Assembly (NCBI RefSeq): GCF_030013595.1
Contig: NZ_CP122768.1
Length of the DNA: 64,000 bases
DNA from: Escherichia coli
GTDB lineage: Bacteria; Pseudomonadota; Gammaproteobacteria; Enterobacterales; Enterobacteriaceae
Reading direction: 5' to 3' (one strand)
Part shown: positions 41,071 to 55,876 of the stretch, in pieces
Position numbering within the stretch: the stretch's first letter is position 1
Layout: each line of letters starts with the position of its first letter
Notes under the pieces: generated by a model
What the model saw: only the letters and a program-made list of their open reading frames with translations
Told to the model about the DNA's origin: nothing
The model's database searches: none
Translations under genes and position numbers: made by a program

Positions 41071-42057
41071 TCACTTATTAAAATGCCCCCAACGAAAATA
41101 CATGTCACATGCCATCATAAAATCGTTATGCCAGAGGAATCGACAATGGAAAAAATAGTAAATTAAGCATGGTACATAGCAGAGTAAAAAATAGGCTTCA
41201 AACCAAATCCGCCATTCCACAAGCGTTGCCAATACCGACACCAGCGTAATCCACATCACTTCAATAACCAGCAATATGAATAACCGAAGCCAAAGCGGCT
41301 TGGCAAAAAAGGTCGACAACGCATTTTCACTGGAGAAAAACAGATCGATTTCCTGCAAAAAAAGCCTGCCCAGAAAAGCGTACCGCTTGGAGAAGCGCAG
41401 AAAAAACAGATTAATCGCCAACACTACGCCACAAAGAATGAGCAATGCAATTATCGATTTAAACGTTAACCACTGCCCCTCTGTCACAAAAGAATCACTG
41501 TTACGCAACGGGCTGATAGTAAGCAGGTTAACAACCGTTGAGATGCACACCGAAAGCAGCACATAGCGAGTCAGACTTTTATATTTTACCTTTTTCGCCA
41601 CTGAAATAGCGACCTGCTTGACATAACTGGTGCGGATCATCCGAAACAGCAGAAAGATAACCAACGGCCCAAGTAACGAAATCAGGAACAGCGCATATAA
41701 CGAGGGTAGAAGCTGGTATAGCCCCCAACTCATTGCACTCAACATGATTAGCGACAGAAATCCTGCCACCAGAGGTTGCGTAAGAAATAATTCTATTTTG
41801 TGGTTATGCTTTTTCTTAAACCACGAAAAATCGATATTCTTCGTGACGCATTTATAAGCCCAGTACGCCTTGAGATCAAAAATAAAATTATACAGCACCA
41901 GGGCCAGAATCCCACTAACGACACCAATATCCTCAGATGGAAAAGTAAACCCTGCATTTTTCCAATAAAAGCCTATCAGAATAAGTCCAATAGCATAAAT
42001 GTATATCAGATTTCGTTTATCCTGAAAGCGAATAAAAGTTAAATAATCAGGAATCAT
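41071..42057 (-). CDS. ycdU: polytopic inner-membrane protein YcdU
   Basis: 328-aa [42 protein letters not shown]...; multiple hydrophobic segments; start overlaps stop of upstream gene (ATGA). Confidence 0.85.
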
Positions 42058-42998
42058 TTGAATACCTTCGCATCACTAAATGCTTTACGACAATGCATAA
42101 CTCGTTGCTGATCCACGCCAGCAAAATCATTTAACATATTCCCCAAATAAGGCTTATTACTTATTTCAAGGAAAGCTACCGGGGTTGGCATATTCAGAAA
42201 TGTATCGAGAGATTCAGTCCATTTCACCGTGTGAGTTAAGTGTAATGAGAGATTTTCTTTGATAATTGACGGAGCGACCTCGCTTTTTGCTGTTACGTTC
42301 ATCAGAACCTGATGCTCTGGTGAAGCGATATCCAGTCCGGCAAGATAATCGCGCATTGCCTGAACGCCGTCTTCCATCAAACGCGTGTGCCAGGCACCGC
42401 TCACACCGAGTTTAACCGGTTCGTATCCAGCGGCCATCAGCAGCGTGGCAAATTCATTCAACGCAGCCTGCGTTCCCCCAATAACCTGCTGGCGCGGCGT
42501 GTTATCACAGCTAATATCCAGCGCAATGCCTGATTCCGTAATCATCGTCTGCAGTTGTTCGCGGTTGATGCCTTTAACCGCCAGCATTGCGCCTTTATTT
42601 CTCTGGCTTTCGTCATGCATCAGGCTGGCTCTGAAGTGAATCATGCCAAATAGCGTCTCAAGAGAAAGAGCTCCGGCGGCGTAGAGCGCACTGTATTCAC
42701 CAACGCTGTGTCCGCAGGAGCCCACAACCGTTAAATTCTCAAGACGCTCACGGCACAGGGTATAGAGCGTTACATTAATTGCGGTCACCGCCAGTTGTTG
42801 TACCGTCGTTTGAATAAGGCGATTCATCGGCCCTTTCTGACACAGGCGACGCAGGTTCAGTCCGGAAATATCGCTGGCACAATCCCAGATATGTTTTGTA
42901 CTGGCGTTGAGATCCCAAAGATCGCTGCCCATACCAATAACCGGATTACCCTGACCGGCAAAAAGCAGTACTGTCGGTTGTGAAGCATTATTCATCAT
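42054..42998 (-). CDS. ymdE: FabD-like malonyl-CoA:ACP transacylase family acyltransferase (full-length form of ymdE)
   Basis: 314-aa [17 protein letters not shown] (cf. FabD FPGQGSQ) and nucleophile elbow GHSVGE; K-12 carries only a fragment of this gene. Confidence 0.8.
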
Positions 42999-43008
42999 CT
43001 CTTTATCC

Positions 43009-44397
43009 TTATAGATAGTATTTAAAGCCCAAATAAAGGCCTAACGTGTCGCCAAAAAGCGCAAATTCAGAATACCGACTTCCCAGCGCGCTATAGCCAC
43101 CGGCATAGGCTTCAAGCTGGTTACTGATAGCGCTGAGCGGCGTGGAATAATGCAGGCCCAGCAACGTGCTGCCATCAATGAGATTGACCACCAGCGAAGG
43201 CTGCAGCGTCGACTCTCCCGCCAGCGGCAGACTGGCCCAGGCGTTCAGATAGTGCTTACCCTGCAGCATCCCCTGATTGGCGGTATTGCTGATTTCTGAA
43301 GCCATCAGGTATTTGTAAGAATCAAATGCCTGATCCAGTGGCGCATAGCCGGTTGTGGTATTGAGGAAGTCAATTAACTCGCGCTGCTGACGCTGTTCAG
43401 CGCGCGAATACCCCTCGCTCTGAAAGTAATACTCAACGCCAAACACGCTGAAAATATCACTGGTGTACTGCCCACCCAGCGCCAGCTCCACGCCGCTTTC
43501 ATCTTTCGTTTCATAGAGCGAATCCGGAAACTGATATTCCTCGACCTGCGCCGTCTCACGGTGGGAAAGATGCCGCCATTGTTGGGAGCGGTGGTAGGCT
43601 GCGTCGACATTCAGCGTCAGCTGCGGGGTGTAGTGATAACTGTCAGACAGCGCGAGTGACGGCGATGGCCCGAGCCGCACATTGACTGTCGGCGTGTGCT
43701 CACCAAAGCGATGATCGCTGTAGCTCAGCAGATAGGCTTCATCGCTGTTTCCCTGCTGATTAGCCGACCAGTTGCCAGACGTCACATAGCGTTTGTCGAT
43801 GGTGGCTAACTTCGGTATGACGCTCGCCGAAAACGCATAATCGCGTGTATCCACGCTCATTTTTGCGCCCCACGATGACGCCTGATACGCCGATGTCATT
43901 TTGGGATCGTGCAAACGCGTCGACTGGAATCCGGTGTAATAATGCGTTTGCAAATCAGAAGGCGAACGCAAAAAGAACATTCCTGACGGCGCGGCAAATT
44001 TGCCTGCTTCAAATTGAACGCTGTCCGAGGCGCTATAGACCAGACTGAGGCGGTTAATTAACGCACGCGTGCGGCTATCATCCGTTTCGAATTTCCCTGC
44101 GAGTTTAAGCGCATATTCGTTTATTCCATACAGATTGAGCTTAAGGTCCAGCGTATTGTCGATTATCGAACAGCCACTGTTGATGCCAATCCCCGCCTCC
44201 TGATAACCGTTGTGACGAGTGTAGGGATTTTTGCCTGCAATCTGCCAGGCCGAAGCCTGTTTATTGACATAAGACACCTGCTCGTAAAGCGTCACATCGC
44301 TGTTTTGTGCCACCTCGTCACCTGACAGGCAATCCGCCTGTACCGTCAACGGCAGCACAACACACAGCAACGAAGAGATCTTCAGCGCACGTTTCAT
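43009..44397 (-). CDS. putative outer-membrane beta-barrel protein
   Basis: 462-aa ORF with N-terminal signal peptide MKRALKISSLLCVVLPLTVQA, Tyr/Gly/Ser-rich alternating pattern, C-terminal aromatic-rich ...LGLYLGFKYYL; 4-nt overlap with upstream gene. Confidence 0.5.
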   Translation of the reverse strand: MKRALKISSLLCVVLPLTVQADCLSGDEVAQNSDVTLYEQVSYVNKQASAWQIAGKNPYTRHNGYQEAGIGINSGCSIIDNTLDLKLNLYGINEYALKLAGKFETDDSRTRALINRLSLVYSASDSVQFEAGKFAAPSGMFFLRSPSDLQTHYYTGFQSTRLHDPKMTSAYQASSWGAKMSVDTRDYAFSASVIPKLATIDKRYVTSGNWSANQQGNSDEAYLLSYSDHRFGEHTPTVNVRLGPSPSLALSDSYHYTPQLTLNVDAAYHRSQQWRHLSHRETAQVEEYQFPDSLYETKDESGVELALGGQYTSDIFSVFGVEYYFQSEGYSRAEQRQQRELIDFLNTTTGYAPLDQAFDSYKYLMASEISNTANQGMLQGKHYLNAWASLPLAGESTLQPSLVVNLIDGSTLLGLHYSTPLSAISNQLEAYAGGYSALGSRYSEFALFGDTLGLYLGFKYYL

Positions 44398-54717: not shown

Positions 54718-54720
54718 AAA

Positions 54721-55482
54721 TCACCGCATGACCAGGCCGCCATCGATAACGATGGTCTGGCCGACAATGTAGCTGGACGCAGAGGAACTTAAGAAGACGA
54801 TGGTGTTCGCCACTTCTTCACATTTCCCCAGACGGCGTAACGGGATGGTACTGGTGACCGCACGGACCACTGCGCGGGATACTTTTTTCACCATTTTCGA
54901 TTCAATCATTCCCGGAGCGACCGCGTTGACGCGCACGCCCCAGGGTGCCATTTCTGCTGCCAGCGTGCGGGTGAAGCCGAGGATCGCCCCTTTTGACGCA
55001 CTGTAATTCGCCTGACCGACGCTGGGGATCAGCGCTGCAATAGAGGCAACGTTAATAATGGCGGGATTTTCTGCCGCACGAAGCAGCATCAACGCGTCTT
55101 TCGTCAGCCGGAAAATGCTGAACATGTTGGTTTCGATAACCTGGGTGAAATCCTCATAGCTCATCGAGGCAAACAGGCTGTCTTTAACGATGCCCGCGTT
55201 ATTCACCAGCACATCAATCTTGCCAGCTTCGCGCTCTATCTGTTCGCACAATGCGCTCACGCTCTGGGGGCAGGCGAGATCGCACTGCACAATATGCAGT
55301 TTATCGCCTGCTGGATGGCTTGCTTTCAGCGCCGTTAATTGCACGTCGTTGGATTTATAGAGCGCATAAACATCGCAGTTCTGCTCCAGATATTTTTCGC
55401 AAATACCCAGTCCAATATCACCACTGGCTCCTGTCACCAGTACGGTTTTTTCATTTAAATCATTATATTTGTACATATTCAT
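54721..55482 (-). CDS. SDR-family 3-oxoacyl-ACP reductase (FabG-like)
   Basis: ORF 54721..55518; VLVTGASGDIGLGI NAD(P)-binding motif, NNAG, catalytic YSASK; start probably at MNMYKYNDL. Confidence 0.8.
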   Translation of the reverse strand: MNMYKYNDLNEKTVLVTGASGDIGLGICEKYLEQNCDVYALYKSNDVQLTALKASHPAGDKLHIVQCDLACPQSVSALCEQIEREAGKIDVLVNNAGIVKDSLFASMSYEDFTQVIETNMFSIFRLTKDALMLLRAAENPAIINVASIAALIPSVGQANYSASKGAILGFTRTLAAEMAPWGVRVNAVAPGMIESKMVKKVSRAVVRAVTSTIPLRRLGKCEEVANTIVFLSSSASSYIVGQTIVIDGGLVMR

Positions 55483-55495
55483 CACATATGTTGAG

Positions 55496-55876
55496 TTAAT
55501 AAACGATGACAGTCGCAATGGCGTGGGTACGGCAATGCGAAATACTCAGGGAGTTATTTTGCAACCCCTGCCCGATAAAAATTTCTTGTAGTCTTCCGGA
55601 AATAACGAAATAAGGTGCTTTGGCCGCATCATGCTTTATTTCAATATCCTGGAAACGTACGCCATCACGAAAACCACAACCAATCGCTTTAACTAACGCT
55701 TCTTTCGCTGCCCAGAATCCAGAGGCCCGTTCATAATCAGGTTCTGCAGGGTTAATGAGTAAGCGCTCATGAGCAGTATAAACACGCTCATAAAAAGCCA
55801 TCTCTCCATTAATAATGGCTTTGGTTATTCTGGCAATTTCAACAATATCTGTCCCTATTCTCATTAATCTCGTCAT
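55496..55876 (-). CDS. holo-ACP synthase-type 4'-phosphopantetheinyl transferase (AcpS-like)
   Basis: 126-aa [16 protein letters not shown]... and ...[13 protein letters not shown]... match AcpS G(x)DIVEI and (F)AAKEA(x)xKA motifs. Confidence 0.72.

Follow-up and report, generated by a model that had tools for sequence, protein, structure and literature searches.

A stretch of 64,000 nucleotides from the tRNA-Ser(GGA) serX/ycdU chromosomal region of Escherichia coli, referred to below as the window, carries on its minus strand a set of closely spaced genes running from otpA and otpB through acpS-like to fabD-like genes and ycdU (41071-61400), which on the evidence of gene spacing and strand is a 17-gene operon of O-island 47 (OI-47), a hallmark island of O157:H7. 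Its products are predicted to combine a lipid or polyketide assembly line, an ATP-binding cassette (ABC) export module and OtpA/OtpB, a two-partner secretion (TPS) pair. A dedicated envelope or surface lipid/polyketide pathway is considered a likely function of these genes, and the overall picture, in which a lipid assembly line, envelope export and a partnership with OtpA are united in one operon, is held with moderate confidence. The operon is real, intact, selectively maintained, widely distributed (with close relatives in Enterobacter, Klebsiella oxytoca, Proteus mirabilis, Morganella, Serratia and Acinetobacter) and an orphan; no new principle is established by it. In kind it is a variation on the theme of a highly reducing type II polyketide synthase combined with envelope export, and it has three unusual features, namely an invariant enzyme of T-protein fold, a second, Ser-type pair resembling a ketosynthase (KS) and a chain-length factor (CLF), and a specific TPS partner. 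Automated tools mislabel the cluster as an aryl-polyene (APE) cluster. The present analysis defines the 17-gene unit, picks out one ketosynthase predicted to be competent, recognizes a folate-type enzyme as the signature of the family and ties the orphan OtpA/OtpB pair as well as ycdU of strain K-12 to the cluster, so that a vague annotation as 'fatty-acid-like genes' becomes a testable pathway.

Extent and integrity of the operon

The original prediction, made from the sequence of the window, described fourteen consecutive minus-strand genes at 42054-55876. All fourteen open reading frames (ORFs) were found at these coordinates. With the start sites taken from the RefSeq annotation (Prokaryotic Genome Annotation Pipeline, PGAP) of a 99.9% identical genome, the spacings from the acpS-like to the fabD-like gene are 13, 3, 21, 35, 73, 4, -4, 10, -17, 0, 8, -4 and 13 nt; the largest gap of 73 nt, given in the prediction as well, is located at the junction of the genes for the GcvT-like protein and the KS-CLF fusion. 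The boundaries of the unit had been drawn too narrowly, as otpA/otpB and ycdU belong to it, too. On the same strand, otpB (55880..57499) ends 15 nt upstream of acpS, otpA (57588..61400) ends 88 nt upstream of otpB, and ycdU (41071..42057) overlaps the stop of the fabD-like gene by 4 nt. The fourteen genes reported before are the middle of this larger unit.

The genes are intact and neither fragments nor pseudogenes, their lengths being equal to those of the orthologues in about 25 other species. In the comparison with Enterobacter cloacae, the ratio of nonsynonymous to synonymous substitution rates (dN/dS) was 0.04-0.16 with saturated synonymous sites for all 17 genes, and purifying selection is accordingly the mode of evolution indicated by codon comparison for every one of them. 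A scan of the minus strand inside 42054-61400 detected no convincing intrinsic terminator. Upstream of otpA lies an AT-rich, non-coding stretch of 1.4 kb (61401..62790; GC content 0.38-0.44), in which no ORF of at least 90 aa was found between otpA and the next gene at 62791. This spacer is presumed to be the promoter/regulatory region of the operon; in a promoter scan, sigma-70-like matches upstream of otpA were no commoner than in shuffled sequence.

Biosynthetic and export genes

Locus contexts in other species were gathered in three ways, via homologues of the GcvT-like protein, via distant homologues of the 317-aa protein U317, and via a scan of one genome per species with an alignment of the KS-CLF fusion, which yielded 58 loci at the species level (L010-L067). 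The KS-CLF alignment was used in place of an alignment of the distant U317 homologues, which was too divergent for a genome scan. About 65 loci from other species, including metagenomic ones, were collected overall, and every locus was labelled with the window proteins.

Family searches confirmed the labels previously given to the AcpS-type enzyme, the short-chain dehydrogenase/reductase (SDR), the FabZ-like dehydratase (DH), the acyl carrier protein (ACP), the GcvT-like and FabD-like proteins, the ABC ATPase, the FtsX-type permease and the LolA-like protein. The AcpS-type phosphopantetheinyl transferase (55496..55876; likely start at 55864 according to PGAP, giving 122 aa) reached 80.2 bits on TIGR00516 (cut-off 59.8). 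The FabG-like SDR ketoreductase (KR; 54721..55518; likely start at 55482, giving 253 aa) reached 227 bits on the FabG subfamily model NF009466 (cut-off 222) and 238 bits on TIGR01830, and its 184 bits on the model of the flexirubin protein FlxB were below the cut-off of that model. Regarding the FabZ/ApeI-like hotdog DH (54169..54717; 182 aa), the FabZ models match residues 17-80 (73 versus 113 bits), H54 and E68 are invariant in 60 orthologues, and the orthologues yield a Pfam FabA match and a weak ApeI-like match. The discrete ACP (53866..54147; 93 aa) is recognized by ACP/PP-binding models (29 versus 70 bits) and keeps the phosphopantetheine site D-S-V-D in 60 of 60 sequences. The FabD-like malonyl-CoA:ACP transacylase (42054..42998; 313-314 aa) scored 179 bits on TIGR00128 (cut-off 261), with GHSxGE, R123, Q16 and H204 invariant in about 60 orthologues.

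The 852-aa protein encoded at 50038..52596 had been described as a di-domain ketosynthase. Two KS-type domains are present in it, but the second half is a dead, CLF-like domain. The N-terminal domain scored 448 bits on the FabF model (cut-off 494), matched FabF and the ishigamide ketosynthase 6kxd_A in the PDB, and has C162, H294 and H330 invariant in 61 of 61 sequences; in the C-terminal domains of the same 61 sequences the Cys position is variable (E/V/Y/N) and both catalytic His residues are absent. Judged by these residues, the protein is a competent FabF-like ketosynthase fused to a catalytically dead CLF-like domain (KS-CLF). The predicted second ketosynthase, KS2 (48810..50099; likely GTG start at 50033, giving 407 aa), is KS-like, but when aligned to the KS domains of polyketide synthases (PKSs) it has Ser in the position of the catalytic Cys and Tyr in that of the second His. 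S183 is found in 58 of the 61 sequences (Cys in the other three), H316 and Y351 in all 61, and this family-wide conservation of the site argues for a real but non-condensing activity.

The adjacent 317-aa protein (U317; 47860..48813), formerly listed as an unknown, matched nothing in sequence searches of Pfam, NCBIfam and the PDB; structure prediction alone resolved its fold, and according to the model U317 is a CLF-like thiolase-fold partner of KS2. In one metagenomic relative (L007, 6282-8636) KS2 and the U317-like protein are part of a single 784-aa polypeptide, which supports their partnership. The cluster is therefore predicted to encode two KS/CLF-type pairs, with one of the four thiolase-fold units able to condense.

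The GcvT-like protein (52670..53830; 386 aa; aminomethyltransferase fold), which had been regarded as an atypical oddity, turned out to be an invariant signature of the family. No locus that covers its position lacks its gene, which always lies between the genes for ACP and KS-CLF, a placement which suggests a carrier-protein-bound substrate other than aminomethyl-lipoyl-H. The protein scored 137 bits on NF001567 (versus 300) and 101 bits on TIGR00528 (versus 236), and was aligned over 337 residues with the T-protein of T. maritima (PDB 1woo). Residues D94, G-K-H-G-E193 and R233-x-E-N are invariant in about 60 orthologues; the Asp, Glu and Arg among them align with residues that form the folate site in T-protein structures. 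The enzyme is probably folate-dependent.

Among the 17 genes, the family searches detected no enoyl reductase (ER), thioesterase, adenylating or starter-activating ligase, methyltransferase or lipid acyltransferase. The idea of a second, self-contained ACP-dependent assembly line holds, with its own phosphopantetheinyl transferase, ACP and malonyl transacylase and with catalytic residues kept in about 60 loci. By its gene content the cluster would be a self-sufficient, dissociated, highly reducing machine of the type II PKS or fatty acid synthase (FAS) kind.

Interleaved with the biosynthetic genes are those of the Lol/MacB-like export module, as originally proposed. The LolD/MacB-type ABC ATPase (47142..47936; likely start at 47849, giving 235 aa) scored 228 bits on the LolD model TIGR02211 (cut-off 308), with similar scores on MacB, DevA and darobactin exporter models. 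The FtsX/MacB_PCD-type, LolC/E-like permease (45191..46501; 436 aa) scored 92 bits on the lolCE model TIGR02212 (cut-off 362) and is matched by LolC/E, FtsX and MacB models; its orthologues carry the Pfam domains MacB_PCD and FtsX. This set of a MacB_PCD and FtsX permease with a cognate ATPase is that of MacB/FtsX-type (type VII) ABC transporters. The LolA-like protein (44394..45182; 262 aa; signal-peptide-like N-terminus) belongs to the Pfam family LolA_like (PF17131, E = 9.6e-36; TP_0789-like) and is probably periplasmic. U218 (46502..47158; 218 aa), which has a signal-peptide-like N-terminus and is probably periplasmic as well, yielded no family match in sequence searches of Pfam, NCBIfam and the PDB. 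Its gene is present wherever the ABC genes are, always between ATPase and permease, and the motifs FYGYG...DEA...RYLRARxDAF...GRCV are conserved in 28 orthologues. The 462-aa secreted protein (43009..44397), likewise with a signal-peptide-like N-terminus, is outside the known families, with no Pfam, NCBIfam or PDB sequence match even when searched as a 26-sequence profile; C23 and C76 are invariant, and its gene always co-occurs with that of the LolA-like protein. It may be an outer-membrane component, the label given to it in the original prediction, for which these searches yielded no support. YcdU, a polytopic inner-membrane protein of 328 aa, is encoded by the conserved last gene of the cluster, directly after fabD in 49 loci. 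Its predicted structure is all-helical with about eight long helices (mean predicted local distance difference test score, pLDDT, 91), and YcdU homology reaches the most distant variants of the cluster (E = 3e-10 and 4e-11). It is plausible that the product is exported and reaches the outer membrane or the cell surface.

Family variants, the OtpA/OtpB pair and the state of the locus in E. coli

The invariant core of the family consists of AcpS-KR-DH-ACP-GcvT-KSCLF-KS2-U317 together with FabD and, after it, a YcdU-like membrane protein. It was found in Enterobacterales, Acinetobacter, Aeromonas, Neisseria, Pseudomonas, Paraburkholderia, Desulfatitalea and Arenicella, and five types of layout are distinguished. 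Type 1, the layout of E. coli, has the order TpsA, TpsB, core, ABC-U218-FtsX-LolA-462aa, FabD-YcdU and occurs in Enterobacter, Kosakonia, K. oxytoca, Leclercia, Mixta, Rahnella, Pantoea, Acinetobacter, Aeromonas and a Neisseria species. Type 2 (Proteus mirabilis, Morganella, Providencia) has TpsA only and is devoid of the LolA-like and 462-aa genes; in the loci of P. mirabilis ATCC 29906 (L038), Morganella morganii (L039) and Providencia (L058) and in L006, TpsA adjoins acpS with no adjacent TpsB. Type 3 (Serratia, Erwinia, Cedecea, Paraburkholderia) is without TPS genes and has a second SDR, and type 4 (Pseudomonas alcaligenes group) is a rearranged version of the type 3 layout. Type 5 (Desulfatitalea, Arenicella and metagenome-assembled genomes, MAGs) shows the core and a second KS-CLF, with no ABC genes in the stretch seen.

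Several further observations concern these variants. In L056, L057 and L059 (Arenicella and MAGs) a second full KS-CLF gene follows the second SDR, and no ABC or LolA genes were present in the recovered stretch. A search of the type 5 flanks for tailoring or anchoring genes gave unrelated ones only (PurL, an AraC-type regulator, a bile-acid symporter, an acyl-CoA ligase on the opposite strand and an MdoC-like acyltransferase). Within L010-L067 the distribution is strictly reciprocal, loci with TPS genes having one SDR and loci without them a second SDR, which is placed either between the genes for the FtsX permease and the LolA-like protein or after the permease gene; this reciprocity may be a clade marker only or may reflect a different product. 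Type 3 loci (L008, 11152-11916; L045, 14920-15696) have, between the genes for the U317-like protein and the ATPase, an additional conserved ORF (254-258 aa) without a match in NCBIfam, which the E. coli type lacks.

OtpA (TpsA exoprotein; 1270 aa) consists of an N-terminal TPS domain, which matches the TPS domains of FHA/HpmA in the PDB with E = 1e-33 to 1e-36, and a beta-helix passenger. OtpB (539 aa) is a TpsB outer-membrane transporter of the ShlB/FhaC type (RefSeq ShlB/FhaC/HecB family), whose orthologues carry the Pfam domains POTRA_2, POTRA_3 and ShlB. A TpsA with TPS domain next to an Omp85-type TpsB with POTRA domains is the composition of two-partner secretion (type Vb) systems, and OtpA/OtpB has been described as a genuine TPS system, with secretion shown experimentally and the function of OtpA unknown (PMC5422565). 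At least in the account given by a citing paper, the authors of the OtpAB work speculated on a tie to the neighbouring fimbriae. OtpA contains an internal, diverged duplication of about 378 aa (start-to-start spacing 1134 nt); it is 50% identical to an 847-aa orthologue from Acinetobacter, the C-terminal part of which matches twice. Most OtpA orthologues have 830-930 aa, long forms are found in Enterobacter, Aeromonas and Mixta mediterraneensis, and a short OtpA of 892 aa occurs in some E. coli.

The passenger family of OtpA is small (54 matches), and passengers with at least 37% identity were found only beside this cluster. Two further members (42-48% identity) are followed by TpsB-AcpS-KR-DH-ACP-GcvT-KSCLF, and the matches with 27-30% identity are stand-alone genes. 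TpsA and TpsB are located immediately upstream of acpS in 24-26 type 1 loci, and TpsA alone in four type 2 loci (Proteus, Morganella, Providencia type). Between the two types TpsA is 32% identical over its full length and KS-CLF about 56%, so the association of TPS genes and cluster predates the split of types 1 and 2. The absence of TPS genes from about half of the family makes the pair an accessory partner that stands outside the core. The chances for and against a functional coupling of the cluster product to OtpA are judged to be even.

Within E. coli the operon is restricted. The serX-adjacent island of pathogenic strains to which the original prediction had vaguely referred is OI-47 of O157:H7 (z1528-z1556; S-loop 71 of strain Sakai), according to the literature (PMC8565820, PMC3893438) and the annotation of the 99.9% identical genome. 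In megablast searches 40000-62000 was covered to at least 80% in 377 of 5,426 complete E. coli genomes; nearly all remaining genomes have its first 2.4-2.6 kb alone, that is serX, ycdU and a stump annotated as 'ACP S-malonyltransferase'. In K-12 MG1655 the counterpart of 41071-42998 of the window is found at 1095544-1096829 (L009), where the fabD-like gene survives as a 3' stump, the pseudogene ymdE, which has a 4-nt overlap with ycdU and lies directly against the insertion sequence IS3D; everything else of operon and island is gone between the ymdE stump and dgcT/pgaABCD. The ymdE' and ycdU genes of K-12 are a remnant of the 17-gene operon. The notion of a simple acquired island had to be corrected, since K-12 retains this 3' stump beside IS3. 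The ymdE/ycdU pair has been discussed as a mastitis-associated marker, with no mention of the full operon (PMC4951805).

A 16-gene, 19-kb synteny cluster specific for sequence type 11 (s1-ST11) was described at this place in a pangenome paper of 2022 (PMC9205054), so the existence of the cluster and its grouping with a hemagglutinin-like gene were already known. Enrichment on spinach roots was seen for bacterial artificial chromosome (BAC) clones that span ECs1272-1296, and deletion of the neighbouring fimbrial locus had no effect (bioRxiv 10.1101/2020.04.13.038984), which leaves otpAB and the lipid genes as candidates. The operon may explain the plant-root enrichment of BAC clones carrying the region.

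Regarding the surroundings of the operon, ycdU is intact (328 aa) in the window and annotated as frameshifted in the closest complete genome (strain HCP5S3_I2, L001 13074-14059, 99.9% identity). In the interval between serX and ycdU, directly 3' of serX, a 179-bp tandem repeat (40145-40937; 4.4 copies, 99% identical) bears a terminator-like hairpin on the minus strand in every copy. The homologous places of other genomes are annotated in RefSeq as 'RtT sRNA' (small RNA), and Rfam at the gathering threshold reported tRNA alone for this stretch; judged by megablast query coverage, the copy number appears variable among genomes. Beyond the spacer upstream of otpA, the opposite strand (62791-64000; L001 34793-41417) carries a gene for a 207-aa hypothetical protein and the chaperone-usher fimbrial locus loc6, and farther along OI-47, beyond loc6, grvA-like and EAL-domain (vmpA-like) genes follow.

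Proposed pathway, alternatives and known systems

In the proposed pathway, AcpS would activate the dedicated ACP, FabD would supply malonyl-ACP, and KS-CLF, KR and DH would iterate without enoyl reduction, giving an ACP-bound unsaturated chain with a length set by the CLF domain. Such a chain would probably be polyene-like or of the hydroxy/enoyl kind, as in highly reducing type II PKSs. The GcvT-like enzyme would catalyze a tetrahydrofolate-dependent one-carbon transfer on an ACP-tethered intermediate, handling the phosphopantetheine arm as the T-protein handles the lipoyl arm of H-protein, and KS2/U317 might prime or off-load the chain via an acyl-O-Ser intermediate. YcdU could receive or anchor the product in the inner membrane, from which the MacB/LolCDE-type ABC transporter and U218 would extract it; the LolA-like protein would then ferry it through the periplasmic space to the outer membrane and hand it over to the 462-aa protein there. 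In types 1 and 2, OtpA (together with OtpB in the E. coli type) would work together with the product, as partner, carrier or acceptor. That the product is polyene-like is a tentative suggestion, with somewhat less in its favour than against it. A new class of cell-surface lipid, composed of an unsaturated polyketide-like chain to which a folate-derived C1 unit is added on the ACP, with OtpA as dedicated partner in the E. coli type, is a possibility on the doubtful side; if true, it would mean a new use of the T-protein fold, the first TPS system equipped with a dedicated line for lipid synthesis and Lol-like delivery, and a function for the K-12 orphan ycdU.

A number of points weigh against this pathway. 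The case for a single transcript is made from tight spacing and the absence of convincing terminators. The GcvT-like protein stays below the cut-offs of the GcvT family, and its folate binding is a prediction. The absence of an ER from the cluster does not imply a polyene, because the housekeeping FabI could act in trans. The outer-membrane step is deduced from the signal peptide of the 462-aa protein and its co-occurrence with the LolA-like protein, with no recognizable outer-membrane protein family, and YcdU gave no informative structural neighbour in a structure search and no match in sequence searches of Pfam, NCBIfam and the PDB. As to OtpA, the TPS genes are missing from types 3-5 and hence not part of the core mechanism, their linkage to the cluster could reflect one or two ancestral insertions, and the Proteus-type loci combine TpsA with the absence of TpsB and of the LolA-like and 462-aa genes. 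OtpA was reportedly secreted in laboratory strains with OtpB alone (Choi et al. 2007; Choi & Bernstein 2009); if so, the lipid genes are not needed for secretion. The literature offers no product and no experiment that ties the genes of the cluster to any metabolite.

The tight and specific linkage of an OtpA-type TpsA to the cluster in two diverged subtypes can also be explained by a protein-lipidation and sorting module, in which a special acyl chain is covalently attached to OtpA or to a Lol-handled lipoprotein. LolCDE/LolA-type components normally move lipid-anchored proteins, the invariant Ser-His site of KS2 could serve acyl transfer, and some TPS loci include cytoplasmic enzymes dedicated to modification (HMW1C, EtpC). 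This explanation is considered unlikely, however, as TPS genes are missing from about half of the family, as neither a lipobox-bearing protein nor a known protein acyltransferase (HlyC/TAAT or Lgt/Lnt type) is encoded among the 17 genes, and as OtpB alone reportedly sufficed to reconstitute the secretion of OtpA.

The export genes might also provide self-protection or efflux, the product being a diffusible signal, surfactant or toxin released to the medium. Small molecules and peptides are exported by MacB-type ABC systems, the ATPase reaches equal scores on MacB, DevA and darobactin exporter models, the type 5 relatives show the core without ABC or LolA genes in the stretch recovered, and no lipid-anchoring acyltransferase is found among the 17 genes. 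Where present, however, the export genes are interleaved with the biosynthetic ones, a LolA-like carrier is typical of hydrophobic cargo, and the membrane protein YcdU is conserved, which makes a diffusible product quite unlikely.

A divergent APE cluster making an aryl-polyene pigment lipid is very unlikely. It is suggested by antiSMASH 6, which flags 'an aryl polyene biosynthetic gene' in s1-ST11, but O157 has its genuine APE cluster elsewhere, at ECs4324-4341 (PMC9205054). The logic of KS/CLF, KR, DH and ACP without ER and the LolA-like protein are common to both, and the weak Pfam ApeI-like match of the DH and the FlxB score of the KR (184 bits, below cut-off) point in the same direction. 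Yet the 17 genes are without equivalents of ApeH, ApeB, ApeD, ApeJ, ApeK, ApeM, ApeG and ApeN (gene list in PMC8253772), and APE clusters have no GcvT-like enzyme, ABC/FtsX exporter, AcpS, FabD or YcdU. The original view of a cluster resembling APE clusters and distinct from them, for which equivalents of ApeH, ApeB, ApeD, ApeJ, ApeK and ApeM were searched in vain, is thereby upheld.

Least probable of all is a decaying relic without present function in E. coli, for which the loss of the operon from most strains (377 of 5,426 genomes keeping it, K-12 reduced to ymdE' and ycdU) and the frameshifted ycdU of the closest genome could be cited, against 17 of 17 intact frames of orthologue-like length, retained catalytic residues and dN/dS of 0.04-0.16; a pseudogene relic was rejected. 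Also rejected were a housekeeping type II FAS (no ER; FabD, FabZ, ACP and FabF scores all below the equivalog cut-offs), a true Lol pathway (LolD and lolCE below the equivalog cut-offs, a single permease, LolA-like protein in PF17131, no LolB), a true GcvT (below the cut-offs; neighbours ACP and KS in all loci) and a polyunsaturated fatty acid (PUFA) synthase (no multidomain Pfa proteins).

Among known systems, the APE clusters (apeA-R of E. coli CFT073 and OI-138 of O157; BGC0000836) share with the window cluster a dissociated KS/CLF, FabG-like KR, FabZ-like DH and ACP without ER, a LolA-like protein and a dedicated exporter thought to place the lipid in the outer membrane, and the location on an accessory island in Gram-negative pathogens and commensals. 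The aryl-starter acyl-ACP synthetase ApeH has no counterpart, none of the 17 genes giving a match to an AMP-binding or acyl-ACP synthetase family and every ORF being either assigned otherwise or outside all families. The same is true of the anchoring enzymes ApeD/ApeJ and the thioesterase ApeK, for which YcdU, U218 and the 462-aa protein are the only uncharacterized candidates. From the transport set ApeL/ApeM/ApeN/ApeG, the LolA-like protein alone is common to both, and the exporter is of the ABC/FtsX and not of the resistance-nodulation-division (RND) type. Eight defining functions are thus missing from the window cluster, those of ApeH (aryl-starter acyl-ACP synthetase), ApeB (SAM methyltransferase), ApeD (lysophospholipid acyltransferase), ApeJ (glycosyl/acyltransferase), ApeK (thioesterase), ApeM (RND/MMPL exporter), ApeG (COG4648) and ApeN (DUF3261/LolB-like). 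Conversely, APE clusters are without the GcvT-like enzyme, the cluster's own AcpS and FabD, the fusion of KS and CLF, the second, Ser-type KS/CLF-like pair, the MacB/Lol-type ABC exporter, YcdU and, in type 1, the TPS pair.

The pairing of a competent KS with a CLF lacking the catalytic Cys is found in the window cluster as in highly reducing type II PKSs. The ishigamide-type PKSs among these (KS-CLF Iga11/Iga12, PDB 6kxd) are actinobacterial and without an envelope export module, GcvT-like enzyme or TPS genes; unlike in them, KS and CLF are fused in the window cluster and a second, non-canonical pair is present. With the Lol and MacB systems (LolCDE-LolA-LolB, MacAB-TolC) the cluster shares a LolD-like ATPase, a LolC/E-like FtsX permease with MacB domain and a LolA-fold protein; it differs from them by scores below the Lol equivalog cut-offs, by one permease gene instead of two, by the absence of LolB, MacA and a TolC-type partner, and by the extra 218-aa and 462-aa proteins outside known families.

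As in HMW1ABC, EtpBAC and ShlA/ShlB, a canonical TPS-domain TpsA and a ShlB-family TpsB are accompanied by genes that could supply a cofactor or modification; the activity of ShlA requires phosphatidylethanolamine. The order of tpsA before tpsB differs from that of these comparison systems, and no other TPS locus is known to be embedded in a lipid or polyketide assembly operon. Unlike the T-protein of glycine cleavage, the GcvT-like enzyme has no H, P or L protein genes nearby. It has the fold of the T-protein relatives DmdA, LigM and the C-terminal domains of sarcosine and dimethylglycine oxidases, and the catalytic Asp, the G-x-x-G-E motif and the Arg of T. maritima GcvT align with their counterparts in the window protein.

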